Shown: positions 1,143 through 64,000 of the stretch, one piece after another
Numbering within the stretch: the stretch's first letter is position 1
Layout of the letters: every line of letters begins with the position of its first letter
Assembly (NCBI GenBank): GCA_964357395.1
Contig: CAYHLC010000001.1
Location: 119,599-183,598, forward strand
Direction: 5' to 3'
Source of the DNA: an uncultured Candidatus Saccharibacteria bacterium
GTDB lineage: Bacteria; Patescibacteriota; Minisyncoccia; Phycocordibacterales; Phycocordibacteraceae
DNA length: 64,000 nucleotides
Translations under genes and position numbers: made by a program
The notes under the pieces: model-generated
Seen by the model: the letters and a program-made list of their open reading frames with translations, nothing else
Told to the model about the DNA's origin: nothing
Database searches by the model: none

Positions 1143-1256
1143 ACCTTGGATCAGCGTATCGTAGCATGCGCGCCCCGGCCCGGCAACCAAGCTCCTGTTG
1201 AAACGAATACGCCAAACGTTGACCGCGCCGCCTACTTCCTTTATAGTTACGACACT

Positions 1257-1625
1257 ATGAAGAAAAAGACTAAGAAGGGAGTGAATGCTAAGAAACAGAA
1301 GAAGGTTGCAGTCAAGTCCAGCAGATCGACTGCTCCGATAGTCCCCCTCAATGATCGCGTCCTCGTCAGGCCACTCTCGGCCGATGATATGGCCACGACA
1401 ACAGCATCCGGCATTATTATTCCAGATTCGGCAAAGGAGAAGCCGGAGCAGGGCACCGTTATTGCGGTAGGGCCAGGCAAGTGGGAAGACGGCAAGCGCA
1501 CACCAGTTGGCGTATCTGTCGGTCACAAGGTTGTAGTCCGTGAATATTCGAAGAATGTCATTAAGATCAAGGGTGAAGAGTATTGGATTATTTCAGAGTC
1601 AGACGTTTTAGCGATCATCAACTAA
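1257..1625 (+). CDS. groES: co-chaperonin GroES with ~28-aa lysine-rich N-terminal extension
   Basis: ATG at 1257 gives MKKKTKKGVNAKKQKKVAVKSSRSTAPIVPLNDRVLVRP...EYSKNVIKIKGEEYWIISESDVLAII. Ends 1 nt before groEL. A TTGACC-17-TATAGT promoter ends 7 nt before the ATG. Confidence 0.9.
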   Translation: MKKKTKKGVNAKKQKKVAVKSSRSTAPIVPLNDRVLVRPLSADDMATTTASGIIIPDSAKEKPEQGTVIAVGPGKWEDGKRTPVGVSVGHKVVVREYSKNVIKIKGEEYWIISESDVLAIIN

Positions 1626-1626
1626 C

Positions 1627-3273
1627 ATGGCCAAAAAAATACTTTTCGACGCGGACGCACGCTCCGCTATTAAGGCAGGTATCGACGCTGCAGCACGCGC
1701 AGTCAAGGTGACCCTTGGTCCCCGTGGACGTAACGTCATTTTGGACAAGGGATACGGCGGCCCGCACATGACGAACGATGGCGTGACTATCGCCAAGGAG
1801 ATCTCGTTCAAAGACAAGTTTATGAACATGGGTGCGGAGATAGTGAAGGAGGTTGCAAATAAAACCAACGACCTAGCGGGTGACGGTACCACAACGTCAG
1901 TAGTCCTCTTCCAGGCACTCGTCGACGAGGGCATGAAGCAGACATCAATGGGCGTCAACGCGATGCTGATTCGCTCTGGTATGGAGAAGGCGGCCGAAGC
2001 AACGGTGAAGGCTCTGAAGGCGATAGCAAAGCCGGTCGCAGGTGACAAGGATATCAAGCAGGTGGCAACCATCTCCGCCGAGAGCGCAGAGATCGGCGAG
2101 ACCATTGCAGCAGTCATTGGTGAGGTAGGCCAGAACGGTGTCGTAACGGTAGAGGAATCTCCATCATTTGGAATAGAGAAGGAGGTGGTAGAGGGACTTG
2201 AGTTCGACCGCGGGTACGTCTCGGCGTACATGGTCACGAATCCAGAGAAGATGGAGGCGTCATACAAAGATGCGCAGATATTGATTACTGACAAGAAGAT
2301 CACCTCGGTGCAGGAGATCCTCCCAGTGCTCGAGGCGGTGGCACGTACTGGGAAGAAGGAGTTGGTGATTATCGCAGATGACGTGGAGGGCGAGGCACTG
2401 GCCACCTTCGTACTGAACCGCCTCAAAGGCGCGTTCAACGTCCTTGCAGTCAAGGCCCCAGGGTATGGCGATAGGAAGAAGGAGATGCTCCAGGACATCG
2501 CCATCATGACGGGCGGCACCGTCATTACTGAGGAAGTGGGACTCAAGCTCGACAAGACAGAGCTCACCATGCTCGGCCGCGCAGCAAAGGTGATCGCGAC
2601 CAAGGACTCGACTATTATCGTCGGAGGGAAGGGGACTAAGAAGGAGATCGACTCGCGCGTCGGCTCACTCAAGAAGCAGCTTGGTGATACTGATTCGAAG
2701 TTTGATAAGGAAAAGCTGGAGGAGCGCATCGCCAAGCTCTCGGGTGGCGTCGCGGTCATCCGTGTTGGTGCTGCAACGGAAACGGAGATGAAGTACTTGA
2801 AGGATAAGATCGAGGACGCAGTAAATGCTACGAAGGCAGCGATCGCAGAGGGTATCGTCCCAGGAGGCGGGACGGCGCTCGTAAAGGCCGCACAGAAAGT
2901 CGAGGCAGAGACGAACTGGGACAAGTTGAGCGCTGAGGAGGCGGTCGGCTACCGCATCGTCCTTGCTGCACTCGAGAAGCCCTTGAAGCAGATCGCAATG
3001 AACGCAGGCAAGGAGTCAGGCGAAGTCGTCGTTCAGGAGGTTAAGAAGGCAAAAGGCTTTGCAGGATACGATGCAGTCAAGGACGAGATCGTCCCTGACA
3101 TGATGGCTGCTGGCATTATCGACCCAGTCAAGGTGACACGCGGCGGTGTGCAGCATGCAGTATCAGCAGCAGCTATCCTCCTCACAACTGAAGCCGCGAT
3201 AGCAGACGAGCCAGAGGAGAAGCCTGCTGGTGGCGCCCCAGGTATGGGCGGCATGGGCGGAATGGACTACTAG
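1627..3273 (+). CDS. groL: chaperonin GroEL (548 aa) with C-terminal GGM repeats
   Basis: Track ORF; MAKKILFDADAR...GPRGRNV...DGTTT...AVKAPGYGDRKK...PGMGGMGGMDY. Confidence 0.97.
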   Translation: MAKKILFDADARSAIKAGIDAAARAVKVTLGPRGRNVILDKGYGGPHMTNDGVTIAKEISFKDKFMNMGAEIVKEVANKTNDLAGDGTTTSVVLFQALVDEGMKQTSMGVNAMLIRSGMEKAAEATVKALKAIAKPVAGDKDIKQVATISAESAEIGETIAAVIGEVGQNGVVTVEESPSFGIEKEVVEGLEFDRGYVSAYMVTNPEKMEASYKDAQILITDKKITSVQEILPVLEAVARTGKKELVIIADDVEGEALATFVLNRLKGAFNVLAVKAPGYGDRKKEMLQDIAIMTGGTVITEEVGLKLDKTELTMLGRAAKVIATKDSTIIVGGKGTKKEIDSRVGSLKKQLGDTDSKFDKEKLEERIAKLSGGVAVIRVGAATETEMKYLKDKIEDAVNATKAAIAEGIVPGGGTALVKAAQKVEAETNWDKLSAEEAVGYRIVLAALEKPLKQIAMNAGKESGEVVVQEVKKAKGFAGYDAVKDEIVPDMMAAGIIDPVKVTRGGVQHAVSAAAILLTTEAAIADEPEEKPAGGAPGMGGMGGMDY

Positions 3274-3501
3274 TTCCTATGGCCGAGAAGTGACCAAAAC
3301 CGCCAACACAAGGCGAACAAATGCAGTTCTCGCGCAAGCTCGTGGAGTGGTTGCAGTCGATACTTATGTTGGTGAGGGGAATTGTTGTTCCGCGACCGGC
3401 ATACAGAAGGCAGGAGACCTCGATAAAGAAGAAACCCCACCCACCACGTAGTAGTAAGATCAAGGGAGGGTTTCTCTAGATGCATTTGCTATAATGGGGG
3501 G

Positions 3502-4062
3502 ATGACACCCTTCTATATCGTTTTAGGCGTTGTTGTCGTCATCGGCCTGTACTTGGTCATGACCTACAACCGTTTTGTTACCCTCGTTAACCGCACCAAG
3601 GAGGCATGGGCCGACATCGACGTGCAGCTGAAGCGCCGGTACGACCTTATTCCTAACCTCGTCTCAACCGTGCAGGGCTATGCCGCGCACGAGAAGCAGG
3701 CGTTCGAGAATGTCACTAAGGCCCGCGCAGCTGCAATGGGGGCGCAATCAGTCGAGGATCACGCAAAAGCGGAGAACATGCTGACCGGGGCACTGAAGTC
3801 AATCTTCGCTATTGCTGAGGCGTACCCAGACCTGAAGGCGAACCAGAACTTCCTCGAGCTGCAGCGCGAGCTATCGGATACAGAGAACAAGATCCAGGCA
3901 GCGCGCCGCTTCTACAACGGCAATGTGCAGGATTTGAAGACCGCTCTCGAGCAGTTCCCCTCTAACATCGTCGGCAACATGTTCAGCTTCAAGGGCATGG
4001 ACTTCTTCCTGCTCGCCGCAGACGAGCAAGCCGCCAAGAATCCTGTCGCAGTGAAGTTTTAA
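3502..4062 (+). CDS. LemA family membrane protein
   Basis: Track ORF; N-terminal TM then NRFVTLVNRTKEAWADIDVQLKRRYDLIPNLV... typical of LemA. Confidence 0.85.
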   Translation: MTPFYIVLGVVVVIGLYLVMTYNRFVTLVNRTKEAWADIDVQLKRRYDLIPNLVSTVQGYAAHEKQAFENVTKARAAAMGAQSVEDHAKAENMLTGALKSIFAIAEAYPDLKANQNFLELQRELSDTENKIQAARRFYNGNVQDLKTALEQFPSNIVGNMFSFKGMDFFLLAADEQAAKNPVAVKF

Positions 4063-4070
4063 GATTCTGA

Positions 4071-4955
4071 ATGGCTACGCTCTACTCGCAAGCGGATAGC
4101 AATATACGTCGCACGTGGGTGTTGATGCTCACGTTCTTCATCGCGGTTGTCGGACTTGGGTGGGCGCTGTCCTTCGCGCTCGATAACCAGTTCATCCTCT
4201 ACGCTGCGGTCGGGCTCTCGTTGGTTATGAACGTCGGCTCGTACTGGTTTTCAGACAAGGTCGCCCTTAGCGCGAGTGGCGCCAAGCCCGCAGACGGACC
4301 AGAGTATGTAGAGCTCAACCGGATAGTAGAGAATCTTGCTATTACGGAAGGTATGCCAAAGCCGAATGTGTACATCATCAACGACCCCGCACCAAACGCG
4401 TTTGCTACCGGCCGGGACCCAAAGCATGGCGCTGTTGCAGTGACGACCGGCCTCCTCCGGATGATGGAGCGTTCAGAACTCGAGGGCGTACTTGCGCACG
4501 AACTCAGCCACATCAAGAATCGCGACACCCTGGTTATGACGGTGGTCGTCGTTCTTTTAGGAATCGTGACGCTCTTGTCGGATTTCTTCATCCGCTCACA
4601 AATGTTTGGTGGGGGAGACAGAGATAACAAGGCAGCTCCGTATCTAATGATCATCGGCATTGTGCTCGCGATACTCTCGCCAATCATTGCGCAGCTCATA
4701 CAACTCGCGATCTCTAGGCGGCGCGAGTTCCTCGCAGACGCCTCCGGCGCGCTTATGACTCGCTACCCAGAGGGCCTCGCGAGTGCTCTCACAAAAATAG
4801 GCGCCTACGCAGCGCCTATGCAGCGGGCCAACAATGCGACCGCGCACCTATTTATATCCAACCCCTTTGGCGCAGGCGCCATGAAGGGCATAGCCAAGTT
4901 CTTTATGACTCACCCTCCGGTAGAGGAGCGGGTTAGGGCTCTTCTCGGCAAGTGA
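4071..4955 (+). CDS. htpX: HtpX-like M48 zinc metalloprotease
   Basis: Track ORF; HELSHIKNRD (HExxH) plus polytopic membrane topology. Confidence 0.85.
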   Translation: MATLYSQADSNIRRTWVLMLTFFIAVVGLGWALSFALDNQFILYAAVGLSLVMNVGSYWFSDKVALSASGAKPADGPEYVELNRIVENLAITEGMPKPNVYIINDPAPNAFATGRDPKHGAVAVTTGLLRMMERSELEGVLAHELSHIKNRDTLVMTVVVVLLGIVTLLSDFFIRSQMFGGGDRDNKAAPYLMIIGIVLAILSPIIAQLIQLAISRRREFLADASGALMTRYPEGLASALTKIGAYAAPMQRANNATAHLFISNPFGAGAMKGIAKFFMTHPPVEERVRALLGK

Positions 4956-5272: not shown

Positions 5273-5330
5273 CGAGCAGGGTGTCGCCGAGGTTAGGATG
5301 CCGCCATTGTTAGTCTGATACCATCTCCCT

Positions 5331-5756
5331 ATGGACACTTTCTCAGAATCCGACTTCGACATAAAGAAGTCATTGATCCTGCCCGTCAATTCGAAACGGG
5401 AATTGTTTGTACAGGATCGCCGCGGGCACAAAAAACCGGATTGGGGTTATTTTGGAGGCGGTATCGAACCAGGCGAGACCCCACTTGAGGCGGTGATACG
5501 GGAGAGTAAGGAAGAGCTTTGTATAAATCTTAAGGAATCCGATTTGGTACCGCTCGGAATTTCAACAACCAGTTGGGATGATGTGAAGATGCTCCGGTAT
5601 TTATATCTTTACCGAACGGATCAGGTGGAGTTTGATGTCCGCGAGGGTAAGGGTGGGCTGTGGCTCACGTTTGATGAGGCGCGAGAGCGTATGGATGGGA
5701 GGGATCTACTAGATGATGTGGTCGCGAGGATCAATCGCGCCCTCGACGCAGCGTAG
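5331..5756 (+). CDS. NUDIX hydrolase
   Basis: Nudix box GGGIEPGETPLEAVIRESKEELCI. Confidence 0.8.
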   Translation: MDTFSESDFDIKKSLILPVNSKRELFVQDRRGHKKPDWGYFGGGIEPGETPLEAVIRESKEELCINLKESDLVPLGISTTSWDDVKMLRYLYLYRTDQVEFDVREGKGGLWLTFDEARERMDGRDLLDDVVARINRALDAA

Positions 5757-5794: not shown

Positions 5795-6808
5795 TTGTAT
5801 TATAGGGGCATGAATGGTGTAAACCCGCAGTACGTCATCGCCGGGATAGGCGTACTTATTATTATTGGTATCGCCGGCTATAGCGCGCTCGGCCCCTCAG
5901 CCGTCACTACTGACGAGCCGGTAGTTGCGGTGTCTGGCCCGGAGGGGACAGAGGAAGTGGCTACAGTACAGCCATCAGAGACAACTACTACTCCGAAACC
6001 TACGACACCAAAGCCAACTTCGCCAACACCAAACCCTTCGACCGGTGCGGGATCTCCAGCCGCACCTTCGACCCCAGCTGAAACGCCGGCAGCTCCACCA
6101 GAATCCACACCACCGGTAGCTCCGACAGCACCAACGGCTCCAGCGGCATACAACCCAGGCTTTCAAGCATCGACTCGCGTGCACCCTGGTATTCCGTCAG
6201 AAAACGAGCGTGCCACGCTGCCATCTTGCGATGGCAAAAAGTTTACTATCGACCCAGTCAATTTCGGTGCGGTAACGTCGATCACTGCAAATGGGAGCTT
6301 CAGCGGCGTCGCCCCGCATGAGTATGCAGTTATTCGACTCAACACCACTGGCACTGAGGCCATGTACGACCTTACCGCGCCACAGGACGTGTGGGTGACG
6401 TCTTTGGTGCAAGAGAGTGGACTCTCCGTCGACTCGAGCGATACCACCATTTACTTTGCGCTATGCAAAGATGTGATCGGCTACACTACGCACATCAAGG
6501 AACTCTCTACACAGACATACAAGATACTGACCGACTCATACTGCTTCGGCAAGCCGCATACGGGACCTAATGCCTGCAAGATCGAGATACTCCAACTGAT
6601 CGGTGGTGGCTCGTCGCTCGGCAAGGTAGGTAGGCTTGAGGGCGCCTTTGGGCTCGGCGTTATTGACCTTAGGACAGAGCGAGGCCTCATGAATCCAAGC
6701 GTATACTCGGTTATTACGAACTTTGCTCGCTGCCCCTTCAGCTACTTCACCAACGCAGAGGCGTTCAACAACAAGCTCACCGGCACTTCGGACCTGTGTG
6801 TGCAGTAG
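5795..6808 (+). CDS. hypothetical membrane-anchored protein with Pro/Thr-rich linker and Cys-containing C-terminal domain
   Basis: Track ORF; N-terminal TM (VIAGIGVLIIIGIAGY), ~90-aa PT-rich low-complexity linker, then globular domain with 6 Cys. No recognised family. Confidence 0.55.
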   Translation: MYYRGMNGVNPQYVIAGIGVLIIIGIAGYSALGPSAVTTDEPVVAVSGPEGTEEVATVQPSETTTTPKPTTPKPTSPTPNPSTGAGSPAAPSTPAETPAAPPESTPPVAPTAPTAPAAYNPGFQASTRVHPGIPSENERATLPSCDGKKFTIDPVNFGAVTSITANGSFSGVAPHEYAVIRLNTTGTEAMYDLTAPQDVWVTSLVQESGLSVDSSDTTIYFALCKDVIGYTTHIKELSTQTYKILTDSYCFGKPHTGPNACKIEILQLIGGGSSLGKVGRLEGAFGLGVIDLRTERGLMNPSVYSVITNFARCPFSYFTNAEAFNNKLTGTSDLCVQ

Positions 6809-6838
6809 CCTGCGAGCCCATTTCATGCTATAGTACTA

Positions 6839-7125
6839 GGAGCGTCAGGTAGTCGCTCTTTGAGAGAGGAAAGTCCGAACACACCCCCGCAAGGGGAGAA
6901 TCGTAGCGGGTAACCCCCGTCCAGTCCTCGGGCACGAGGCTGAGAGGTGCGAACAGAAACGATCCGGTTTAGTCCGGCTGAAACGGCAAAATCCTTACGT
7001 GTGTGCAAGGCCGTGCCCCACGAGCAATCGAGGGGAGTGCCGCAAAGATCCTGCTGGTAACAGTAGGGCAAGACAAATGGCTATCACCCGCAAGGGTACA
7101 GAATTCGGCTTATCGACGCGAAGTG
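6839..7125 (+). ncRNA. rnpB: RNase P RNA (bacterial type, minimal ~290 nt)
   Basis: Universally conserved P4 strands present: GAGGAAAGTCCG (6863-6874) and ACAGAATTCGGCTTATCG (7098-7115). P2 AGTCGC present, tiny P3 hairpin CTCTTTGAGAG. 5' GCGTC pairs 3' GACGC as P1. TATAGT -10 box at 6829-6834. Ends approximate. Confidence 0.75.
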
Positions 7126-7138
7126 CCCACAAGTGAGA

Positions 7139-7205: not shown

Positions 7206-9479
7206 ATGGATACCACACGTTCGTTCCTATCCCTTTGGTCGTACCGCCTCTATATTGGGGCACTTTTCGTGCTGCCGTGGCTCGTTATTCCATCTTCAGT
7301 AGTCCCGTTTGCCTCATTCAAGATGGCACTCGCTGCCGGCCTTATTGGTCTCTCCGTCGTTCTTGCTATTGCAGCGGCGCTCTGGCGCGGCCAGATCAGC
7401 GTCCCATGGAGCATGCTCATGATCTCCGTGTGGGGAGTTGTGGGTGCGTATCTAGTCTCCACGCTGTTCGTACCGTCACCGATCAGCTCACTCATCGGTG
7501 CGGACCTCGCAGTCGACACGGTATTCTTTGTGGCACTCCTCGGTACAGCGCTCATGGTGCCGTTTTATGTCTTTGAGTCGCGGGCGGACTTCATGCGTGC
7601 GTTCTTTGTGGTTCTGGTTTCATCATGGGTCGTCGCTATTATCCACATACTCCGACTCCTTGTGGGGCCAGAGTTCCTCGCCTTCGGCGTGTACGGTTCG
7701 ACGCTCTTTTCGGTCCTCGGTAAGTGGAATGACCTTGGCCTCTTCTTTGGCCTCATCTCAGCACTCAGCCTCATTACGCTCGAAGCGCTGCCGCTCCAGG
7801 CAGTGTACGCCTGGGTTCTCCGCGTCTCTCTCGTAGTGTCGCTGTTCTTTGTTGCTCTCACTAACTTTATTCCAGTATGGGTGTTCCTTGGCCTCCTCGC
7901 GCTCGGCGTGGTGCTATACCGCGCGGTACTTGTTCGAGGTGCCGGAGGTGGCTTCTCACTCCCAGCTACAGCTGTCCTGCTCCTCGCCATCGTATGCACG
8001 CTCTTTACGGGTATCGGCACAGGCCTTTCGGCCGCAACCTCGACCGAGCAGATCGAGGCACGTCCGTCGCTCGGAGCAACGATGTCTGTCGTCAGCTCCG
8101 TACTGAACGAGAGCCCTCTGATCGGCTCTGGTCCCAATACCTTTATCTACGGCTGGGACAAGTATCGACCGCTGAGCCTCAATGGTTCCGTATTCTGGAA
8201 TGCGGACTTCAATGCTGGGGTCGGCTTTATCCCCACATCGCTCGCAACTGGTGGACTCCTCGCAGGAGCAGCATGGCTCCTCTTCATAGGCCTCTTTGTG
8301 ATTATGGGAGTGCGTGGACTACTCCTTGCACCACCAACCGACCCATCGACGTACTACCTCATGCTGGCCTCGTTCACTGCGGGACTCTACGTCCTCATTA
8401 TGGCGCTCCTCTACATTCCGAGCCCGGTCGTACTACTTATCGGCTTTGCAGCGATTGGTATGTGTGCAGCTTTGTACCACCGCGAACGCGGGGGTAGCGT
8501 GTGGACCATCGTGTTTGCCGAGCGCCCACGCCTTGGGTTTGTTGCAGTGCTCTCACTGACCATCAAGCTTATACTCGTCGTGCTGTTCCTCGCCGGAGTT
8601 GGCATGGCGTTCACCTCTGCTGTTGCATACGAGCGAGCATATGCCGCCGCACAAACTGCAGATACTCGAGGGGTCGCGATGGAGCATATCGCAGCAAGTA
8701 TTGCGGCAATGCCAACAGAGCGAGCACACCGCCTGGCGGTTGCTATCGAGCTCGCTCGACTCGACTCTGTAATCCAAGGCGCTTCCGGAGCTCCTTCGGA
8801 GACTGCACAAGCTGAGTTTCAGACCCGCCTTGGTTCCGCAGTAGAGCATGGACTTGCGGCAACAAATGGGGATGCTCGCGACTATCGAAACTGGCTCTCT
8901 CTCGGCAATGCGTACCACAGCGTTGTTGCGCTTAATGTCGATGGCGCCTATGAGTCAGCAAAAAACGCATACCAGCGTGCTGCAGAACTGAACCCGATAA
9001 TCCCTACAGTGCCGTACGCACAAGCTCAGCTCGAGATCTCACGTCAGCAGAGCGGAGCCTCGCGCCCGTTCCTCGAGTCAGCAATTAGCCTTAAGGCGGA
9101 CTTCGTCCCAGCTCTCGTGCTCCTCGCACAGCTCGAACTCGCAGAGGGGAACCTCCCGCAGGCAATCGAGCGCGCCGAGGCAGCCTCGGTTTTTGAGCCA
9201 ACAAACCCACTCCTGCAGTTCCAAACTGGTGTGCTGAAGTTCGAGCAGAAGGACTATGCGGGGGCCCGCACCGCGTTCGACGCTGCTCTAGAGCTCGCGC
9301 CTGACTACTCGAACGCTCGGTACTACCTCGGCCGGACACTCTTTGCTACTGCTGACGTGCCTGGCGCGATAGCAGCGTTCGAGGAGGTGCTACGTCTGAA
9401 CCCTGAGAACACGGAGGTCGCGGCAATTATTGAGTCGCTCAAAACCGGTGATGATCCGTTTGCCGCTCCAAAAGAGTAG
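7206..9479 (+). CDS. O-antigen ligase (Wzy_C)-like polytopic membrane protein with C-terminal TPR repeats
   Basis: Track ORF 7155..9479 trimmed to Met at 7206 (MDTTRSFLSL) because 7155 overlaps the rnpB terminator. ~12 TM helices then TPR-like repeats (AYQRAAELNP, AFDAALELAPDYSNARYYLG, AFEEVLRLNPEN). Confidence 0.7.
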   Translation: MDTTRSFLSLWSYRLYIGALFVLPWLVIPSSVVPFASFKMALAAGLIGLSVVLAIAAALWRGQISVPWSMLMISVWGVVGAYLVSTLFVPSPISSLIGADLAVDTVFFVALLGTALMVPFYVFESRADFMRAFFVVLVSSWVVAIIHILRLLVGPEFLAFGVYGSTLFSVLGKWNDLGLFFGLISALSLITLEALPLQAVYAWVLRVSLVVSLFFVALTNFIPVWVFLGLLALGVVLYRAVLVRGAGGGFSLPATAVLLLAIVCTLFTGIGTGLSAATSTEQIEARPSLGATMSVVSSVLNESPLIGSGPNTFIYGWDKYRPLSLNGSVFWNADFNAGVGFIPTSLATGGLLAGAAWLLFIGLFVIMGVRGLLLAPPTDPSTYYLMLASFTAGLYVLIMALLYIPSPVVLLIGFAAIGMCAALYHRERGGSVWTIVFAERPRLGFVAVLSLTIKLILVVLFLAGVGMAFTSAVAYERAYAAAQTADTRGVAMEHIAASIAAMPTERAHRLAVAIELARLDSVIQGASGAPSETAQAEFQTRLGSAVEHGLAATNGDARDYRNWLSLGNAYHSVVALNVDGAYESAKNAYQRAAELNPIIPTVPYAQAQLEISRQQSGASRPFLESAISLKADFVPALVLLAQLELAEGNLPQAIERAEAASVFEPTNPLLQFQTGVLKFEQKDYAGARTAFDAALELAPDYSNARYYLGRTLFATADVPGAIAAFEEVLRLNPENTEVAAIIESLKTGDDPFAAPKE

Positions 9480-56109: not shown

Positions 56110-56114
56110 GTACT

Positions 56115-56312
56115 GTGGAGGATAGGAAGAGCATACTCGAGACCGTGAAGCCGAGTGACGCTCTAGTGCGCCTCGGCTCTCGGCAATCTGGATTCCGTAT
56201 GTGGGCGGTGGTCATAGCCGTGCTCTTCCTCTTTGGTGTTGTGATAGTTGCTGCAAGCATCTTTAACTCAACTGGTGCATCTAATGAGCCAGTACCATCA
56301 GTAAGTATCTAG
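56115..56312 (+). CDS. small TM protein (65 aa, GTG start)
   Basis: Track ORF; one TM (WAVVIAVLFLFGVVIVAASIF). Confidence 0.3.
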   Translation: MEDRKSILETVKPSDALVRLGSRQSGFRMWAVVIAVLFLFGVVIVAASIFNSTGASNEPVPSVSI

Positions 56313-56313
56313 T

Positions 56314-56559
56314 ATGGACGCACTCACCGGATTCGTCGACAACTTAGTGCGGCTCATCATCCAGCCGCTCGTCGTGCTGCTCCTCACTGCAGGCGTGGCG
56401 TACTTCATTTGGGGCGTTGGTACGTACCTATGGAAAGGGGAGAAGGGCGAGGATCGATCGAAGGCCGCGCAGAACATGCTCTGGGGCCTCATCGGCCTCG
56501 TCATCATGGTCGCTGTCGTTGGCCTCCTCGAAATCCTAACCTCCACCTTCGGGGTCTAG
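56314..56559 (+). CDS. VirB2/TrbC-like small protein, paralog 4
   Basis: LVRLIIQPLVVLLLTAGVAYFIWGVGTYLW - KGEKGEDRSKAAQN - MLWGLIGLVIMVAVVGLLEIL. Confidence 0.55.
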   Translation: MDALTGFVDNLVRLIIQPLVVLLLTAGVAYFIWGVGTYLWKGEKGEDRSKAAQNMLWGLIGLVIMVAVVGLLEILTSTFGV

Positions 56560-56769: not shown

Positions 56770-56798
56770 TTGACTATACTAGAACAGCATGGTATAAT
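56770..56798 (+). promoter_or_regulatory. promoter TTGACT-N17-TATAAT, start codon 6 nt downstream
   Basis: Canonical hexamers and spacing; ATG at 56805. Confidence 0.55.
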
Positions 56799-56804
56799 GC
56801 AAAT

Positions 56805-56993
56805 ATGTGTGGATACTTCATACACCCTGAGGAGGGTTTCACCCTAAAAGGGGGTCTTACTATTTTTGGCGCCGTTTTCTTGTTAGGGTGTATAGCTACG
56901 TACGTCCTTGTCGATAAGGATACTGTACCAAGCAAGTTGATCCTTGAAATTTTGGGCGGATCTTCCTCTAATGGGCCTACCTACGAAACCTAA
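56805..56993 (+). CDS. small TM protein (62 aa), hypothetical
   Basis: MCGYFIHPEEGFTLKGGLTIFGAVFLLGCIATYVLV...; lies in an AT-rich segment. Confidence 0.4.
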   Translation: MCGYFIHPEEGFTLKGGLTIFGAVFLLGCIATYVLVDKDTVPSKLILEILGGSSSNGPTYET

Positions 56994-57767: not shown

Positions 57768-57806
57768 CGGGCTTGTGACGGTCATTAGGCAAGGTACACT
57801 TATGCA

Positions 57807-58538
57807 ATGCTGCAGTTGCCGAAGGCAGTTTTGTTTGATATCGACGATACATTGACCCACAGCTATGAAGAGCCGGCTCAGGAGTTGGTGGCAGACCTCG
57901 ACTCACTCATAGCCAGAATCCCTGTTGCTATTGTCTCCGCGGCCAGCTTTACACGCATTGAAAAGCACTTCCTCAGCGTCCTAGTGTCGCACCAAAAGGA
58001 GGGCAAGTTGTATATCTTTTCCAACAATGCGTCCCAATGTTTTTTGTTCAGAAACTCGCAGTGGGAGCTAGAGTACGCATTTGGCATGACGGATGAGGAG
58101 CGCGGGAGCATAAAGGCTGCAATTAGTGAGAGCGCAGCAGAGCTTGGTATCGAGCACAACGTCATTGATAGGGAGACAAAGATTGTGTACCACGGCGTCT
58201 CAAACGATGCTCACCAAGATATAAAGAAGGCATGGGACCCTGATATGGCAAAGCGGAGTGGTATGAAGTCGGCACTCGAAAAGCGCATATCAGGGTATGA
58301 GATCTTGATTGGGGGCACGCACACGCTCGATATCACCAAGCAGGGGGTCAACAAGTCGTACGCGGTGGAGTGGCTCGCAAAGGACCTCAAGGTCGCGCCC
58401 GCAGAGATGCTCTTTGTTGGTGACGCACTGTACGAGGGCGGAAACGACGCTGTCGTAATCCCAACTGGCATACAGACCCGCCAGGTGGCCGGCCCACACG
58501 AGACACATGTACTTATCAAAGAACTACTTACACTCTAA
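57807..58538 (+). CDS. HAD-superfamily hydrolase (Cof/HAD-IIB-like)
   Basis: Motif I VLFDIDDTLT, motif II/III and C-terminal GD..ND. Confidence 0.8.
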   Translation: MLQLPKAVLFDIDDTLTHSYEEPAQELVADLDSLIARIPVAIVSAASFTRIEKHFLSVLVSHQKEGKLYIFSNNASQCFLFRNSQWELEYAFGMTDEERGSIKAAISESAAELGIEHNVIDRETKIVYHGVSNDAHQDIKKAWDPDMAKRSGMKSALEKRISGYEILIGGTHTLDITKQGVNKSYAVEWLAKDLKVAPAEMLFVGDALYEGGNDAVVIPTGIQTRQVAGPHETHVLIKELLTL

Positions 58539-58540
58539 GT

Positions 58541-59050
58541 ATGAAATGGATAGGAATTACCGGTAGTTGGCGTGCGACAAGCGCCGAGGTGGAGCGGGAC
58601 GTACGCGACTTTGTGCGCACAGCGATAGAGCGCGGAGACGGTATCGTTACTGGCGGAGCACTGAACGTCGACTACTTCGCAACCGACGAGGCGCTGAAGT
58701 ATGACTCCGGGGCGGATCGAATAAAGACCTTCCTCCCCGCGACGCTGGATCGGTACGCCGCCCACTACCGCAAGCGGGCAGGGGAAGGGGTGATAACGAG
58801 CGAGCAGGCAGAACAGCTTGTGGCACAACTAACTGAGGTCAAGCGGAGGAATCCGAATGCGCTTATAGAGAACCTGACTAACGAGATTGTAGACAAGACT
58901 AACTATTACAATCGGAATACCGACGTTGTCGACGCATCAGACGAACTGGCCGCATTCCAAGTCAACGAGAGCAAGGGTGCGCAGGACACGATAGACAAAG
59001 CCAGGGCGCAAGGGAAGCCGGTGACTCTCAAACAGTACACCATTCAGTAG
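58541..59050 (+). CDS. Rossmann-fold protein of the DprA/LOG (SLOG)-like type
   Basis: GITGSWRATSAEVERDVRDFVRTAIERGDGIVTGGALNVDYFATDEAL resembles the DprA/Smf and LOG nucleotide-binding core (hGiTG...ivSGgA.GiD); function unknown. Confidence 0.4.
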   Translation: MKWIGITGSWRATSAEVERDVRDFVRTAIERGDGIVTGGALNVDYFATDEALKYDSGADRIKTFLPATLDRYAAHYRKRAGEGVITSEQAEQLVAQLTEVKRRNPNALIENLTNEIVDKTNYYNRNTDVVDASDELAAFQVNESKGAQDTIDKARAQGKPVTLKQYTIQ

Positions 59051-59102: not shown

Positions 59103-59154
59103 GTTGAGGGTTGTGAAAGTGCGTGCAGCGTTTTGGGTTTGATATAGTAGCCAC

Positions 59155-59709
59155 ATGAGTACAGATTTCGTTGCGAGGCTGAAGGCTCTAGAGAGGGTAT
59201 TGATGGAAGTGCCGGAGCTTACCTATGCAGGGAACCTGGTGCTGCGCACCCCAGCTGCAGAGGTCACAGTAGATGAGGGTAAGGACATAGCTTCGAGGCT
59301 GGAGGACGCACTCCTAAAGTATCGTGCTATTACTGGCACCGGCCGTGGACTTGCTGCGCCGCAAATTGGTGTTGGCAAGGCGGTGTTTATTACGTACCTG
59401 GAGGACAAGATTGAAGTGTTCTTGAACCCTAGGATTGTCGGGAAGTCGGGGGAGACCAGTATGTATAAAGAGCTCTGCATGAGCGTCGGCGTGGTGGCAG
59501 CTGATGTGGAGCGTCCGCAATGGATAGTGCTCGCATGGACCGACTTGGAGGGCAATGCGCATGAGGAGAAGTTCGATTCCTTTAAGGCACGCCTCTACCA
59601 GCACGAGGAGGCGCACCTCCGTGGCCTCCTCAACATTGACGAGGCAGTGTCGGGAGGTATCGAGCTTGCCAACTTTGACCCACTTAAGGAGCAGCTCCGT
59701 CCCAAATAG
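59155..59709 (+). CDS. def: peptide deformylase
   Basis: Motif 1 GRGLAAPQIG, motif 2 ELCMS, motif 3 QHEEAHLRG. Confidence 0.9.
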   Translation: MSTDFVARLKALERVLMEVPELTYAGNLVLRTPAAEVTVDEGKDIASRLEDALLKYRAITGTGRGLAAPQIGVGKAVFITYLEDKIEVFLNPRIVGKSGETSMYKELCMSVGVVAADVERPQWIVLAWTDLEGNAHEEKFDSFKARLYQHEEAHLRGLLNIDEAVSGGIELANFDPLKEQLRPK

Positions 59710-59785
59710 ATTGACAGTTGTAGGGTGGCTGATACGATTAGTGGATGACGCACAAGACATTTCTCGAGCTCTTCGGCTTTAGACG

Positions 59786-59863
59786 GGGTCTTGGCGACTT
59801 CTCTTGCTAGCAGTAACTTCCGAAGAGAATCCACCAAGACCCACCAAAAAAGGGTCTTATTTT
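59786..59863 (+). promoter_or_regulatory. alternative-hairpin element (possible attenuator/terminator) between def and ybaK
   Basis: Long hairpin GGGTCTTGG(59786-94)...CCAAGACCC(59834-42) with nested TTCTCTT/AAGAGAA, versus terminator-like hairpin AAGACCC(59836-42)-ACCAAAAAA-GGGTCTT(59852-58)+ATTTT. The two share the CCAAGACCC strand, so they are mutually exclusive. Confidence 0.4.
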
Positions 59864-59877: not shown

Positions 59878-59994
59878 ATGAGTTACGAAAACAAAATCAT
59901 CTTAGAATCAGCAACAGTGGACGAGCCCACATGCCGACACGGCGTGCGGCTCCCGAAGTCCAACTGCAATGCGTGTAAGAACGGTTACTTATAA
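59878..59994 (+). CDS. small Cys-containing ORF (38 aa), hypothetical
   Basis: Own translation: MSYENKIILESATVDEPTCRHGVRLPKSNCNACKNGYL (C..H...C..C). Confidence 0.25.
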   Translation: MSYENKIILESATVDEPTCRHGVRLPKSNCNACKNGYL

Positions 59995-60003
59995 ACTAAC
60001 AGA

Positions 60004-60555
60004 ATGCTTATGGAGCTTGGAACCTTAAAGATTGTGAGTGTGGCAGAGGGTCAGGAATTGTTGGCACCCACAGTAGCCGCAGCCCTCGCTTGGTTGGAGA
60101 TTGCTGAGGTAGGAGTAACAGAGATCGATCCCACGCTGTCGGACACAGCGGCGTTCTGCGAACATTACAAGGTAGCTATGAGCCAGGCTGCTAACTGCGT
60201 GGTGCTGGAGGCCAAGCGGGCAGACCGGGTGTGGTACGCAGCGTGCGTGATCCTCGGGACCACACGTGCTGACATTAACGGCATAGCACGGAAGACTTTG
60301 GATGCGCGGAAGGTGTCCTTCGCCCCCATGGACCAAGCAGTATCTAAGACGGGCATGGAGTATGGAGCTATTACGCCGGTTGGCCTACCTGCAGACTGGT
60401 CCATACTGATAGACAGGGCGGTAGCGGATTCGGAATACGTCATCATCGGGAGCGGGGTACGGAAGTCGAAGCTGGTGGTGCCAGGCAGCTTCCTTGCCAA
60501 GCTACCAAACGTGCAGGTTATCGATGGCCTCGGCCGCGTACCACCGCAACTCTAA
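60004..60555 (+). CDS. ybaK: YbaK/ProX-type aminoacyl-tRNA deacylase (Cys-tRNA(Pro) deacylase)
   Basis: YbaK-domain pattern: NCVVLEAKR, GAITPVG, VIIGSGVRKSKL. Confidence 0.75.
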   Translation: MLMELGTLKIVSVAEGQELLAPTVAAALAWLEIAEVGVTEIDPTLSDTAAFCEHYKVAMSQAANCVVLEAKRADRVWYAACVILGTTRADINGIARKTLDARKVSFAPMDQAVSKTGMEYGAITPVGLPADWSILIDRAVADSEYVIIGSGVRKSKLVVPGSFLAKLPNVQVIDGLGRVPPQL

Positions 60556-60857: not shown

Positions 60858-61517
60858 CTAATTGCCCCGGACTATGTCGATTTTCATGCGGTAGGCGCCA
60901 ATGATAGCGAGTACAGAAAAGCCGATACCTATGCCCGCGATCGCGTACCAGTTACCGCTCACGATCACGTCGCCAAATGCGGTGTAGAGAACAATGAAGG
61001 GTACCTGCACCGCCATATGCACCACGATGTAATACCAGTAGGGGATCCGGGTTAAGCCGGCTGCGTACGCAAAGAGGTCCATAAACCCCATGAAGTACAC
61101 ACGCGCCTTGGCAAAGCTCCACTTATCACCGAGCTGCCCCAAGACCTGGTCGACCATAGGCCGTTGGGAGGTAGACGTGAAGTAGTTAAGAACAGAGCGG
61201 CCAAAGAATCTGCTGATGAAGAAGGCGATAGTAGAGCCGATCAGATCTCCGAGGAATACATATGCAAATCCGGTCCAGAATCCGAATACTGCGCCGGAGA
61301 TGGGGTAGATAATGGCACCACCAAGCGGTGCTACTACTATCGTTGTCGCTTTCAGCAAGATCACAATAAGTGGCGCAAATATACCCGCGTCCGCCACTTT
61401 GTCGCGCAGTGTGTCGAGGCCGACTGTAACTGTGATGATGTATGCGACACCAACCGTCACGGCGATAATACCGAGGTTCCAAAACGCTTCCTTTGCTGAC
61501 GGCTTAGTGTCTTCCAT
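60858..61517 (-). CDS. DedA/TVP38 family membrane protein
   Basis: Track ORF trimmed to MEDTKPSAKE; DedA core ...GFAYVFLGDLIGSTIAFFISRFFGR... and re-entrant loops. Confidence 0.75.
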   Translation of the reverse strand: MEDTKPSAKEAFWNLGIIAVTVGVAYIITVTVGLDTLRDKVADAGIFAPLIVILLKATTIVVAPLGGAIIYPISGAVFGFWTGFAYVFLGDLIGSTIAFFISRFFGRSVLNYFTSTSQRPMVDQVLGQLGDKWSFAKARVYFMGFMDLFAYAAGLTRIPYWYYIVVHMAVQVPFIVLYTAFGDVIVSGNWYAIAGIGIGFSVLAIIGAYRMKIDIVRGN

Positions 61518-61604
61518 TTTGAGGCCACGGCGGGAATCGCACCCGCGCATAAAGGATTTGCAGTCCTCTGCCTTGCTACTTGGCTACGTGGCCGCTTCCC
61601 AATA

Positions 61605-61919
61605 TTACTCTATCGGTGGGGCTTCACCAACTATAACGCCGCCGATGTTTGGGTCTTGCTGGAAGGTGAAGTAGGGGATCATCCTCATCTTAATCGTCTT
61701 TTTAACATGATCGCGGAAGTCCTCGCGCACGCGATTCAGAAACTCCAAGGCAGGGGCTGCTGCCGAGTCGGGGAATATGCTCACAAAGATTATGCCGCGC
61801 ATACCGCGCTCGCCAAGCTGGACCTTGGTGACGGTGATCAGCGACCGCCTATTGGACTCGCGGTTTATAAACTCGGCTGCAGCTTGTGCTATCGCGGATA
61901 CGACCTTGGCGTTATCCAT
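61605..61919 (-). CDS. rbfA: ribosome-binding factor A
   Basis: Track ORF 61605..62132 trimmed to Met 61919: [49 protein letters not shown]..., the RbfA KH-like pattern. Overlaps infB end by 8 nt. Confidence 0.75.
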   Translation of the reverse strand: MDNAKVVSAIAQAAAEFINRESNRRSLITVTKVQLGERGMRGIIFVSIFPDSAAAPALEFLNRVREDFRDHVKKTIKMRMIPYFTFQQDPNIGGVIVGEAPPIE

Positions 61920-63417
61920 GTTTCTTACCACCGATCTGCACCATATCGCCACCGACGATATCCGCCTTACTATCGATCTGCATACCAAACTCGAGGCCCT
62001 CGGCCACAGTAGAGACGTTAGAGCGCTGCTGCTGCAGGTTGCTAATCTTGCCGTGGCCGATCTCAAGGCCGCGTCGGAAGATGGATACCTGCTCGCCGAG
62101 CTTGATAACACCACTCTCAACCTTTGCTCCAACGACGTGCTTGGAGCCTGCAGCAGAAAAGAGCTTGATTATCTTGGCAGTACCGGTTATTGCTTCTGCA
62201 CTCCGATCCGGTGCGTGCCTGATCAGCTCCGCTGCGAGCCACTCTGAGAGCTCATAGATAATCGCACGTGACTCGAGCATGATCCGCTGGCGCTCCGCGA
62301 GGTCCTTGGCAGATGGGTCCACCTTTATGTTGAAGGCGAGTATCGCCGAAGGGGAGAATCCGATAAGTAACTTAACATCATTCTCGTTTACTGCGCCGAC
62401 GCCGGTCGCCACGGTTAAGACCTCGACATCAGGGTGTGTCACCTTGGCGAGTTCGTACTGCAGCGCCTCGATAGAACCCTGTGTGTCTGCCTTCAGCACC
62501 ACGCGCATCACTACTTTGTCGGTGTTTTCGGCGTTGGATCGTGTAGCGTCGCTGTTCTTCCTCGCAATAGTAGCTGCGACTACCATTTCCTCTGCCTCCT
62601 TCTTTGTGCTAACCACGGTGACGGTGGAGCCGACGACAGGCTCGGCAGTAAATCCGGTGAGGCGCGCGGGCTTGCCGCACTCTAGGGAGTCGACCCGCTT
62701 GCCTGCAAAGTTCTCGATCGAGCGGAGCGGTGCGTAGGCGGTGCCAGTCACTGCAAATCCACCAGTTTGTAGTGTGCCCTGGCGGATGATAACGGTTGCT
62801 GCGGTGCCGCTCTTCGCGTCGCGAGACGACTCGATAACCACTGCCTCTACCGCAGCTCCAGGGTCGGCCTTCAGCTCCTGCACTTCTGCAACGAGGAGGA
62901 TGAGGTCCATGAGTTCCGGAATGCCCTCGCCGCTTTTGCCAGAGACTGCTGCCCACGGAACATCGCCGCCGAGTCCCTCCAGGTAGACACCTTCGCGCAG
63001 CACCGTCTCCTTGGCCTTTTCGATATTAGCCGTGTCCTTATCAATCTTGGTAAATGCGACAATCATCGGGACCCCAGCATCGTTGATAGCCTTGATGGCC
63101 TCTTGGGTTTGCGGCTTGACGCCATCGTCTGCTGCAACAATAAGGATGGCGATGTCTGCTGCGCGTGCAGAGCGGCGACGCATAGCACCAAAGGCCTCGT
63201 GGCCTGGTGTGTCGATAAAGGTGATCAGATGCTCACCGCTAGCATTCTTGTGGACTGCCTCATATGCAGAAACGCGCTGGGTGATACCGCCGTGCTCGCC
63301 ACCCGCGACATTAGCCTTTCGGATGTAGTCGAGGAGGGTAGTCTTGCCGTGGTCGATGTGACCAACAATGGCAACTACAGGCTGTACCGGCGTACTCATT
63401 GATAAAGGAAAGCACAA
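61912..63417 (-). CDS. infB: translation initiation factor IF-2, N-terminally minimal form (501 aa)
   Basis: G domain at extreme N-terminus ([30 protein letters not shown]), followed by IF2 domains II-IV. Confidence 0.92.
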
Positions 63418-63425
63418 AAAACGGC

Positions 63426-63920
63426 TTACTGCAAACTCTTTTTGGCGTCCTCGATGGATGCGCGTTCATCGTCGGAGAGCTCACGCTCCGACTTGAACTC
63501 TGAGACCTCCTTGGCATAGACGCGCACGCCATCGCGAGAGTGGATGCCCGAGAGGACGACGCCGTCGCCCCTCTCGTTGAGGAGTGTGGCAGCAAAGCTC
63601 TGCTGACCGCCACCGCTCTGGAACGGATCAAAGCGGCGGACCGAAACGCCACGGATCGAGCCCTGCAGCCGTTCATCTAAATTATTGAGTGCCGTCTCGG
63701 TCGTTGCTGCGTGCTCCTCGACTTTCGCTATCCGCTCCGTGTTCTTGTGTATTACTGGCTCCAAGCTCTTGCCATCGGTCCCGCGGGTGAGCACCGTAAG
63801 TCGGCGAGAGAGTAGTACTGTCTGCACAAGGGCGAGCACCAAGAGGACGAGGACTATGTCGAGGAGTGGATCCGACATGACCCTTGCTGCAATCGTATCC
63901 AAAATACTTTGCAAATTCAT
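63426..63920 (-). CDS. DUF4446 family protein
   Basis: N-terminal TM, coiled coil, then RRFDPFQSGGGQQSFAATLLNERGDGVVLSGIHSRDGVRVYAK, typical of DUF4446. Confidence 0.65.
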   Translation of the reverse strand: MNLQSILDTIAARVMSDPLLDIVLVLLVLALVQTVLLSRRLTVLTRGTDGKSLEPVIHKNTERIAKVEEHAATTETALNNLDERLQGSIRGVSVRRFDPFQSGGGQQSFAATLLNERGDGVVLSGIHSRDGVRVYAKEVSEFKSERELSDDERASIEDAKKSLQ

Positions 63921-63943
63921 GCTGAAAATAATAGTATCACGGT

Positions 63944-64000
63944 ATGCCTATACGTCGGACCTACCTCGACTACGCCTCTGCGGCGCCCCTCGTGCCGAAA
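63944..64000 (+). CDS. cysteine desulfurase (NifS/IscS-like), N-terminal 19 codons only
   Basis: MPIRRTYLDYASAAPLVPK..., the typical desulfurase N-terminus; ATG 6 nt after TAGTAT; runs off window end. Confidence 0.45.
   Translation, partial: MPIRRTYLDYASAAPLVPK

Follow-up and report, generated by a model that had tools for sequence, protein, structure and literature searches.

What marks the start of a gene when the sequence just upstream of it resembles a promoter and not a ribosome-binding site (RBS)? The question is raised by the 64-kb stretch of Patescibacteria DNA analyzed here, the whole of which we call the window. Its initial annotation described a near-universal leaderless layout, with hexamers of the form TAnnnT resembling the -10 promoter element 6 to 8 nt before start codons and with Shine-Dalgarno (SD) sequences essentially absent. 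We asked how far this layout holds and how the genes outside it might be started.

The window has 55% G+C, is ~84% coding, and carries small genes, 11 scattered tRNA genes, and a reduced RNase P RNA. The best relatives of its GyrA (49279-51762), at 62 to 79% identity, were all from Patescibacteria metagenome-assembled genomes (MAGs) labelled Kaiserbacteria, Paceibacterota, or Parcubacteria, with Chloroflexota and Brevibacillus next at ~48 to 50%. This 827-aa protein had been read as ClpC, a reading rejected on its Pfam match to GyrA. Contigs from the 0.1-µm fraction of Hainich groundwater well H41 contain sequence identical to the window. By sequence similarity, the host is assigned to the Parcubacteria-type (Parcubacteria/Paceibacteria) Patescibacteria (candidate phyla radiation [CPR]) of Hainich groundwater. 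Genes supported by Pfam include groES/groEL, lemA, htpX, murJ, lepA, tsaC/tsaD, ftsA/ftsZ, trxB, bS21, bS1, lepB, pth, gyrA, def, and a short infB. Gene calls were home-made, all gene-start statistics refer to this one 64-kb window, and the related Patescibacteria loci used for comparison were sampled around gyrA only.

A blind set of 73 genes was defined from codon usage, with each start placed at the longest open reading frame (ORF) and the motif left unused. TAnnnT lay 5 to 8 nt before the start in 28 of the 73 and at a spacer of exactly 6 nt in 17 (binomial P ~1e-31 for the count and 7e-19 for spacer 6 alone). For comparison, a hexamer so placed preceded 3.9% of all other ATGs and 1.6% of internal start-like codons in frame, and dinucleotide shuffles of positions -40 to -1 gave 5.8 +/- 2.2 boxed starts (maximum, 13). 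At other offsets between -40 and +20 the hexamer occurred in 0 to 6 genes each, except for a second peak at -4 that is due to upstream stop codons. Column by column, information was found solely at -12 (T), -11 (A), -9 (A), and -7 (T); G was depleted from -13 to -7, and no column was G rich. The phased -10 box is real and far above chance, in line with the initial annotation.

Its universality was overstated. In a curated set of 74 genes, 39 (53%) were boxed at a spacer of 5 to 9 nt (25 at 6 nt, 7 at 7 nt, and 4 at 8 nt), and 37 of these 39 start with ATG; among genes neither coupled to an upstream stop codon nor abutting a tRNA, the share was 34 of 53 (64%). Another ~7 curated genes have a box 10 to 26 nt upstream, predicting short leaders, and ~10 have leaders or unclear promoters. 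The 17 examples first given for the layout were exact in 14 cases; the groES spacer is 9 nt and not 7, the TACTAG assigned to 52432 is not a TAnnnT, and the hexamer at 55768 matches at A2 and T6 only. Pfam coordinates favor the box-defined starts of the NYN, DUF1761, lepB, and methyltransferase genes, while the starts of bS21, pth, and bS1 were set by homology and have no box at 5 to 9 nt. So sharp a peak at spacer 6 would be unexpected unless the transcription start coincided with the ATG. Predicted leaderless mRNAs are less stably folded over their first 40 nt than internal windows are (-6.0 versus -7.6 kcal/mol; P = 0.009).

The hexamers behave as sigma-70 -10 elements, showing the conserved A2 and T6, extension by TGn, -35 elements at 16 to 18 nt, and use at RNA genes. 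The extended -10 TG precedes 14 of the 39 curated boxes (36%), whereas its share among all TAnnnT of the window is 6.7% (P = 1e-7). A promoter-first scan, which is independent of gene calls, looked for TTGACA-16/18-TATAAT with at least 10 of 12 positions matched; 9 of the 14 strong sites have an ATG 5 to 9 nt downstream, 6 of them at exactly 6 nt, versus 7% expected (P = 7e-8). In Chloroflexota and Brevibacillus loci, the same scan gave 7% and 0%, respectively. It independently recovered the 56805-56993 ORF of the initial annotation and yielded ORFs missed by the gene caller at 47934-48182, 48257-48397, and 59745-59810.

The RNase P RNA gene calibrates the distance from the -10 element to the start on a noncoding gene. 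As had been proposed for rnpB, TGCTATAGT ends 6 nt before the RNA 5' end, taken as position 1 of the RF00010 model (promoter at 6826-6841, +; TGcTATAGT, 6 nt, then the RNA). The polymerase's -10-to-+1 distance therefore fits the spacer-6 peak. The RNA itself (6841-7128, +; 288 nt) scores 86 bits against a gathering score of 100, which is why a default Rfam search misses it, and looks like a reduced RNA of class A. Several tRNA genes likewise have TGnTAnnnT 9 to 27 nt upstream, at variable distance. Because the box precedes rnpB and tRNA genes, the motif also serves noncoding genes.

SD pairing is essentially absent, as had been claimed, operon-internal genes included. When upstream windows (-20 to -3) were paired with the canonical tail ACCUCCUUA at a threshold of dG <= -4.5 kcal/mol, 7% passed, versus 32% of intragenic windows. 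The same code gave 65% upstream versus 21% intragenic in Brevibacillus loci and 40% versus 23% in Chloroflexota loci. Among the 74 curated genes, one has an SD-like 5-nt word, which immediately precedes the -10 box of the same gene, and the scan found none at groES/groEL, htpX, ftsZ, ftsA, bS1, bS21, infB, or gyrA. We infer loss of the anti-SD in this genome. In the available sections of a survey of ribosomes in this lineage, the anti-SD motif is kept by 48% of Parcubacteria and missing from the 16S rRNA in about half (PMC9297842). As a side observation, sites able to pair with ACCUCCUUA are frequent inside genes, at 32% of sampled windows versus 21 to 23% in Chloroflexota and Brevibacillus with base composition uncontrolled; such frequent internal sites would fit relaxed selection against them.

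How, then, are genes inside operons started? Here the idea of leaderless operon-internal genes did not hold up: 19 genes, most of them unboxed, start between -17 and +9 nt from an upstream stop codon, 17 being confined to -4 to +9. The junctions comprise ATGA and GTGA overlaps and gaps of 0, 1, 1, 1, 1, 2, 3, 4, 5, 5, 6, 7, 8, 9, and 9 nt. Only 5 of the 19 have a box, and two of these five (htpX, TAAgat; class I aminoacyl-tRNA synthetase [aaRS], TAGact) are formed from the upstream stop codon itself, which rules out an own leaderless promoter for every operon-internal gene. Same-strand neighbors are bimodal, lying either <=9 nt from the preceding stop and mostly unboxed or >=18 nt from it and mostly with their own box, in which case the promoter sits in the tail of the preceding gene. 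A start so close to a stop (-17 to +9 nt) would allow a terminating ribosome to re-engage without SD.

On the forward strand, such junctions are groES/groEL (1623-1629; stop TAA, 1 nt, groEL ATG 1627; no box and no SD), lemA/htpX (4060-4073; lemA stop, 8 nt, htpX ATG 4071, the apparent TAAGAT coming from the stop codon), TPR/murJ (9477-9488; stop TAG, 6 nt, murJ ATG 9486), murJ/lepA (11104-11120; lepA ATG 11104, with a 17-nt overlap with the end of murJ), a 53-aa ORF/peptidase S51 (30159-30162; GTGA overlap, GTG 30159), gyrA and its next gene (51760-51774; gyrA stop, 9 nt, ATG 51772), the solute-binding protein (SBP) gene and a pilin-like gene (55067-55079; SBP stop, 7 nt, ATG 55077), and three further coupled genes at 55398-55404 (stop TAG, 1 nt, ATG 55402), 56107-56117 (stop TAA, 5 nt, GTG 56115), and 56310-56316 (stop TAG, 1 nt, ATG 56314). 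On the reverse strand they are tsaD/class I aaRS (18700-18714; stop, 6 to 9 nt, ATGATG at 18705/18702, with a TAGACT made by the stop codon), the FN3 gene and its next gene (24694-24704; FN3 stop, 5 nt, ATG 24696), DUF2200 (26253-26261; stop, 3 nt, ATG 26255), trxB and its next gene (37103-37109; trxB stop, 1 nt, ATG 37105), ftsZ and its next gene (38247-38252; stop TAG followed directly by ATG 38249), and lepB/class II aaRS (44672-44675; ATGA overlap, ATG 44675). Three coupled genes also have a box: hsp20 (15536-15550, -), 4 nt past the prsW stop, with TAAACT, 6 nt, ATG 15538; a dprA-like gene (58529-58543, +), 2 nt past the HAD stop, with TACACT, 6 nt, ATG 58541; and a 64-aa ORF (49033-49048, +) overlapping the MBL stop by 1 nt, with TACTAT, 7 nt, ATG 49046.

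Two genes begin directly behind a tRNA. At 14365-14444 (+), the encoded CCA of tRNA-Phe ends at 14441 and the ATG of an alpha/beta hydrolase follows at 14442 with neither -10 box nor SD; the hydrolase start, MQVLVIHG, agrees with Pfam (residue 3 = profile position 1). At 61515-61593 (-), the 3' end of tRNA-Cys, which has no encoded CCA, lies at 61521, and the ATG of a DedA/VTT protein follows after 3 nt at 61517 without its own -10 box. Across the window and the related Patescibacteria loci, ARAGORN located 77 tRNAs, with nine tRNA-ATG pairs (eight distinct junctions), four involving ORFs of 180 aa or longer; examples in relatives are L003 15672-15755 and L007 19967-20052. To see whether the tRNA-Phe/ATG junction is conserved, the hydrolase protein was searched in metagenome contigs; the sole match was the identical sequence from Hainich. 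The adjacency suggests that tRNA processing may make the mRNA 5' ends at such junctions, much like mitochondrial tRNA punctuation.

A minority of genes (ftsZ, ftsA, bS1, infB, glutaredoxin [grx], TPR, and ABC) have A/C/U-rich leaders and no SD. ftsZ (39423-39457, -) has TATGAT 26 nt before ATG 39425 and a C/A-rich leader; among the matches listed, 8 of 10 ftsZ orthologues have a -10-like hexamer ~25 to 40 nt upstream followed by a C/A-rich leader. In grx (13500-13530, +), TGtTATACT lies 22 nt before ATG 13528, leaving an A-rich leader of ~15 nt without SD, and Pfam confirms the start (residue 3 = profile position 1). For bS1 (47748-47790, -), the true start is ATG 47750 (MAKKASKK...) and not that of the longest ORF, with no box at 5 to 9 nt and no SD; a YGATYACTG-like motif ~10 nt before the ATG, common to the four closest relatives (L001 to L004), may be an autoregulatory site. 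The protein (46647-47790, -) is a short form with three Pfam-matched S1-domain stretches. The infB gene (63397-63428, -) encodes a short IF2 of 495 aa and starts at ATG 63399, 26 nt past the DUF4446 stop, behind a T-rich spacer with neither box nor SD. In this IF2 (61912-63399, -) the GTPase domain begins at about residue 9 and the N-terminal domains that bacterial IF2 typically has are missing, a feature relevant to an initiation system relying on leaderless mRNAs.

Is the layout peculiar to this window? Orthologues of 17 window genes were mapped in up to 29 related Patescibacteria loci at 30 to 83% protein identity. Box-to-ATG phasing is kept at the same genes, with a box at 5 to 9 nt in 21 of 26 MBL, 22 of 29 methyltransferase, 14 of 20 pth, 10 of 17 lepB, and 11 of 28 gyrA orthologues, compared to ~10 to 15% at control offsets. 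The flanks around the kept boxes are unalignable (35 to 65% protein identity). The box is consistently absent from orthologues of ftsZ, infB, the SBP gene, and the coupled class II aaRS gene. Crude whole-locus statistics over 32 loci gave a mean phased-box excess of +10 percentage points and almost no SD excess (+3 points), and a few related loci appear to use SD (L007, L013, and L029). A search for an alternative RBS-like word upstream of the relatives' box-less genes returned only A/T-rich words and a weak SD-like excess, the latter attributable to the few SD-using relatives. From the conservation and the differences among loci, the layout is a lineage property, and a heterogeneous one, which fits the 48% retention of the anti-SD in Parcubacteria given in the available sections of PMC9297842.

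The explanation that we favor, and hold to be probable, is that of leaderless, -10-phased transcription units with reinitiation downstream and an SD-less leadered minority. The housekeeping sigma-70 polymerase would bind the -10 element, often as extended TGnTAnnnT with a weak or absent -35, and would start transcription 7 nt downstream of it, on the A of the ATG, giving an mRNA without 5' untranslated region (UTR) or SD. A ribosome with initiator tRNA and IF2 would then bind the 5'-terminal AUG directly, a leaderless pathway established in other organisms. Genes without such a promoter would be reached mainly by termination-reinitiation from the upstream stop codon, and tRNA processing could create an AUG-proximal 5' end at the two tRNA-abutting genes. 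The real A/C/U-rich leaders without SD imply SD-independent entry at the remaining minority, probably assisted by bS1. The motif phasing, the promoter hallmarks, the absence of SD, the proximity of starts to stops, and the conserved phasing in orthologues are direct observations; the transcription starts, leaderless translation, reinitiation, and the tRNA-processing route are predictions drawn from them.

Several points weigh against this explanation. Enrichment of the -35 match is only weak (P = 0.08), relatives give a much fainter promoter-first signal (16 to 20% versus 8% expected), and the trade-off between box excess and SD excess over 32 related loci is not significant (rho = -0.31; P = 0.08). 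Because 11 of the 39 curated starts were shifted to a box-associated codon, the curated count is partly circular, and the blind figure is 28 of 73. Rfam found no rRNA in the window, and no conserved 16S words were found in 80 related loci. Finally, ~10 genes fit none of the three easy routes (leaderless, reinitiation, tRNA processing), and all RNA ends given here are predictions.

The same promoters could be real while transcription begins upstream of the ATG by a few bases, or while the true starts lie downstream, so that the mRNAs carry short SD-independent leaders. Spacers of 7 to 9 nt at 13 of the 39 boxed genes would allow for this, as would those of 11 to 22 nt at the 801-aa HEAT-repeat gene, tsaD, RNase T, grx, bS21, and SBP; moreover, the SD-less leadered genes of the window (ftsZ, ftsA, and bS1) mean that an SD-independent leadered pathway must exist anyway. 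But 25 of the 39 boxes lie at exactly 6 nt, a spacing at which +1 falls on the A of the ATG, an RNA 5' end defined by homology lies at the same 6-nt distance in the RNase P RNA gene, and Pfam profile coordinates confirm many ATGs as true N termini, so we regard short leaders as an unlikely general account. Leaders of <=5 nt behave as leaderless in studied systems. It is similarly improbable that a functional anti-SD is kept and SD is used elsewhere, at highly expressed or leadered genes in which the window happens to be poor. The 64 kb examined, the SD-like enrichment in L007, L013, and L029, and the retention of the anti-SD by about half of Parcubacteria (available sections of PMC9297842) speak for it; against it, genes that normally have a strong SD are present (groES/groEL, ftsZ, bS1, bS21, infB, and gyrA) and none has one, and SD-like words are rarer upstream of starts than within genes.

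If TAnnnT at -12 to -7 were instead a translational signal within a 5' UTR—a non-SD motif of the kind called group B or the partner of an altered 16S tail—its placement 6 to 8 nt from the start would be that of an RBS, and this overlap is indeed noted to confuse gene finders (available sections of PMC6028130). A group B motif, however, marks first and internal genes alike, whereas here a box is seen at just 5 of the 19 coupled genes; the extended -10 TG, the full -35 at 16 to 18 nt in nine cases, and the presence of the box before noncoding RNA genes are promoter features, and intergenic gaps of 18 to 60 nt are too small for a separate promoter and UTR. We consider a translational signal very unlikely. 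Least credible is the view that the pattern arose artificially from gene calling, from AT-rich upstream sequence, or from a preceding TAA or TAG at -12. Two boxes (htpX and class I aaRS) are made of the upstream stop codon, upstream regions are more AT rich than coding sequence, and the gene calls are home-made, but the shuffles (5.8 +/- 2.2 versus 28), the promoter-first test made without gene calls, the lack of such a peak in control loci run through the same pipeline, and the phasing conserved in orthologues largely refute it.

A bolder version of the leaderless explanation, which we put forward tentatively and think doubtful as it stands, is that the lineage has dropped the SD/anti-SD system altogether, with de novo ribosome entry essentially at 5' ends only and the rest of the genes reached by reinitiation within ~10 nt of a stop. 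If true, 5' ends would arise in one of two ways, through transcription that begins on the AUG or through tRNA 3' processing, a convergence with haloarchaea and mitochondria, and the layout would be the mRNA-side counterpart of the unexplained loss of the anti-SD (and of uL1) reported for Parcubacteria.

Among known systems, haloarchaea (Haloferax volcanii and Halobacterium salinarum) likewise combine mostly leaderless transcripts with SD-less leaders, and haloarchaeal leadered genes work largely without SD. Unlike the window, they have a TATA box ~26 nt upstream and archaeal initiation factors, so that the transcription step is nonhomologous. In termination-reinitiation or 70S-scanning coupling, starts overlap an upstream stop codon or sit a few nucleotides from it, as they do here. 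Coupling in model bacteria, unlike that proposed for the window, is usually assisted by an SD within the upstream gene, and gaps of 0 to 9 nt are here as common as the classical ATGA/TAATG overlaps. The abutment of ATG and tRNA 3' end (14441/14442 and 61521/61517), where processing would expose the AUG, resembles mitochondrial tRNA punctuation; unlike in mitochondria, there are two cases only in the window and few more in relatives, all known by adjacency. An encoded CCA, as in tRNA-Phe, disfavors RNase Z in studied bacteria. Initiation of the Bacteroidota type (group B) shares the disuse of SD and the A-rich unstructured leaders but has leaders and a non-SD motif at all genes, whereas most mRNAs here are predicted to be leaderless and the motif is a promoter element.

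The closest match is group C of GeneMarkS-2, for which the following is taken from the available sections of PMC6028130. Group C has a Pribnow box 6 to 8 nt from the starts of operons' first genes, with leaderless transcripts predicted or observed, mainly in Actinobacteria and Deinococcus-Thermus; 25 to 50% of operons are predicted to be leaderless and the other genes have an SD-type RBS. The survey cites 167 leaderless genes among 262 mapped in Deinococcus deserti and more than 60% leaderless transcripts in haloarchaea. The window shares the TAnnnT consensus of Mycobacterium tuberculosis, Streptomyces, and D. deserti, on which SD-tuned gene finders do worse (PMC6028130). It likewise shows a sharply localized Pribnow motif, peaking at spacer 6, at first genes and not at operon-internal ones (34 of 53 uncoupled versus 5 of 19 coupled). 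Unlike in group C, ~64% of independently started genes are box phased, and a test for the SD-type RBS that a dual start model places at the remaining genes detected none. The layout is uncommon, as the initial annotation held, but not new in kind; it is the known group C layout in unusually pure form, without SD at the other genes, and not a new principle. The words "Parcubacteria" and "Candidatus" do not occur in the available text of the survey (PMC6028130). Tsurumaki et al. (2022, RNA; PMC9297842) treated the same broad lineage and inferred no SD helices in anti-SD-less Parcubacteria; the sections available deal with rRNA and ribosomal proteins only and give no account of mRNA starts, the side described here. 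A literature search for a connection between leaderless initiation and CPR, Patescibacteria, or Parcubacteria brought up no paper that draws it, and in the matches opened "leaderless" stood solely in reference lists or unrelated contexts.

The box-phased genes themselves are as follows. An extended box ends exactly 6 nt before the ATG, all on the forward strand, at lemA (3487-3504; TGcTATAAT, ATG 3502), a NUDIX gene (5316-5333; TGaTACCAT, ATG 5331), the 53-aa ORF (29986-30003; TGcTACACT, ATG 30001), hypothetical genes of 677 aa (30890-30907; TGaTAGGAT, ATG 30905), 181 aa (36018-36035; TGaTACATT, ATG 36033), and 260 aa (42722-42739; TGcTAGAGT, ATG 42737), the MBL-fold hydrolase gene (48408-48425; TGaTATACT, ATG 48423), the methyltransferase gene (53214-53231; TGgTACAAT, ATG 53229), a 62-aa ORF (56770-56807; TTGACT-17-TGgTATAAT, ATG 56805), and def (59140-59157; TGaTATAGT, ATG 59155). 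Without the extension, the same 6-nt spacer is found on that strand at a hypothetical gene of 332 aa (5798-5812; TATTAT, ATG 5810, the longest ORF running from TTG 5795), tsaC (20817-20831; TATACT, ATG 20829; Pfam residue 3 = profile position 9), an FNR-like gene (21434-21448; TAGAAT, ATG 21446), DUF1905 (29675-29689; TACTAT, ATG 29687), a 61-aa ORF (35777-35791; TAAGAT, ATG 35789), a 96-aa ORF (52083-52120; TTGACA-17-TATGGT, ATG 52118), the second gene resembling a type IV secretion system (T4SS) pilin (55756-55770; GATACT, with A2 and T6 only, ATG 55768), the HAD hydrolase gene (57795-57809; TACACT, ATG 57807), and a ybaK-like gene (59992-60006; TAAACT, ATG 60004). On the reverse strand it is found at prsW (16266-16280; TACAAT, GTG 16268), NYN (42447-42461; TATAGT, GTG 42449; Pfam residue 4 = profile position 1), and the signal peptidase gene lepB (45224-45238; TACACT, ATG 45226), where most of the closer orthologues among those listed have TACAAT at 6 to 7 nt.

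Slightly longer spacers of 7 nt occur on the forward strand at a divIC-like gene (13016-13031; TATACT, ATG 13029), a hypothetical gene of 107 aa (13867-13882; TATAAT, ATG 13880), a 68-aa ORF (45868-45906; ATGACA-17-TGgTATAGT, ATG 45904), and a 97-aa ORF (46313-46328; TACTCT, ATG 46326), the least certain of all since its start was picked by the box. Spacers of 8 nt are seen at DUF1761 (33993-34012, +; TGaTACACT, ATG 34010), trxB (38019-38035, -; TACACT, ATG 38021; Pfam residue 2 = profile position 1), and gyrA (49262-49281, +; TGaTAAAAT, ATG 49279). Farther out, groES (1219-1259, +; TTGACC-17-TATAGT, 9 nt, ATG 1257) has a predicted 5' UTR of 2 to 3 nt, and the 801-aa HEAT-repeat gene (27212-27254, +; TTGAGT-17-TATAAT, 11 nt, ATG 27252) has a predicted leader of 4 to 5 nt. 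Divergent start codons lie 30 nt (19764/19795), 46 nt (35094/35141), and 23 nt (63920/63944) apart, so their promoters overlap, and those of the 23- and 30-nt pairs reach into the neighboring coding sequence. In the 46-nt pair (35092-35143), the hypothetical gene hyp220 (-; TATACT, 8 nt, ATG 35094) faces HhH-GPD (+; TGaTACCCT, 7 nt, ATG 35141); in the 23-nt pair (63918-63946), DUF4446 (-; TATTAT, 7 nt, ATG 63920) faces the next gene (+; TAGTAT, 6 nt, ATG 63944). Placing a promoter within the end of the previous gene and losing the UTR helps explain these divergent pairs 23 to 46 nt apart as well as the gaps of 18 to 60 nt.

Two of the ORFs found by the promoter-first scan lie in the 670-nt interval between bS1 and the MBL gene, which carries both as small promoter-phased ORFs: one of 82 aa (47899-47936, +; TTGACA-16-TACCAT, 7 nt, ATG 47934; ending at 48182) and one of 46 aa (48223-48259, +; TTGACA-16-CATAAT, 6 nt, ATG 48257; ending at 48397). 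Consensus promoters at 16545-16590 (-) and 59711-59810 (+) are phased 6 nt from the ATGs of a 17-aa ORF and of the 21-aa ORF 59745-59810, respectively; these could be microproteins, leader peptides, or the starts of noncoding or leadered transcripts. At 20509-20815 (+), a two-codon ORF, ATG-CCT-TGA, begins 6 nt past the strong promoter TTGACC-17-TATGAT, and downstream of this ORF come a leadered 39-aa Cys-rich ORF (MGFDGSGFEATSYNEDAGCPACSGEKAPHSDGCAFKKKR) and a terminator-like hairpin, both read by eye. In the 375-nt gap behind that promoter (20454-20828), a search for structured RNA gave a fold z-score of -0.84 and no Rfam match.

Two larger regions stand apart from the analysis of starts. 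The stretch 24000-32000 has a G+C content of ~49%, versus 55% in the window, with a strong positive GC skew from 28001 to 36000; it codes for an FN3-repeat protein, the 801-aa HEAT-like protein, and several hypotheticals, and its FN3, yggT, and 3-dmu gene starts match the -10 rule less well. It may have been horizontally acquired. The cluster at 53780-56559 (+) encodes the SBP, two small T4SS-pilin/TrbC-like proteins, and four small membrane-like ORFs, with stop-start gaps of 1 to 7 nt and a gene order kept in many related loci; it probably belongs to the type IV secretion or competence apparatus of Patescibacteria.

The layout has a practical side. That starts should follow the -10 box, as the initial annotation advised, is borne out by the publicly available annotation of the matching ENA contig, which places groES at TTG 1146 (159 aa) and the hypothetical gene at TTG 5795 instead of the box-defined ATG 5810. 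Callers trained on SD mis-set starts in such MAGs, here extending groES by 37 codons, shifting other starts, and missing small promoter-phased ORFs. Parcubacteria account for much of groundwater metagenomes, and their protein N termini, small-protein catalogues, and signal-peptide predictions may be systematically affected. For the biology of the lineage, the window offers an mRNA-side picture matching the published, unexplained loss of the 16S anti-SD, and it predicts ~40 transcript 5' ends together with 19 junctions for reinitiation and 2 at tRNAs. If the regime is SD free, it would be a bacterial parallel to haloarchaeal and mitochondrial initiation and would bear on whether leaderless initiation is ancestral or is favored by genome and ribosome reduction.

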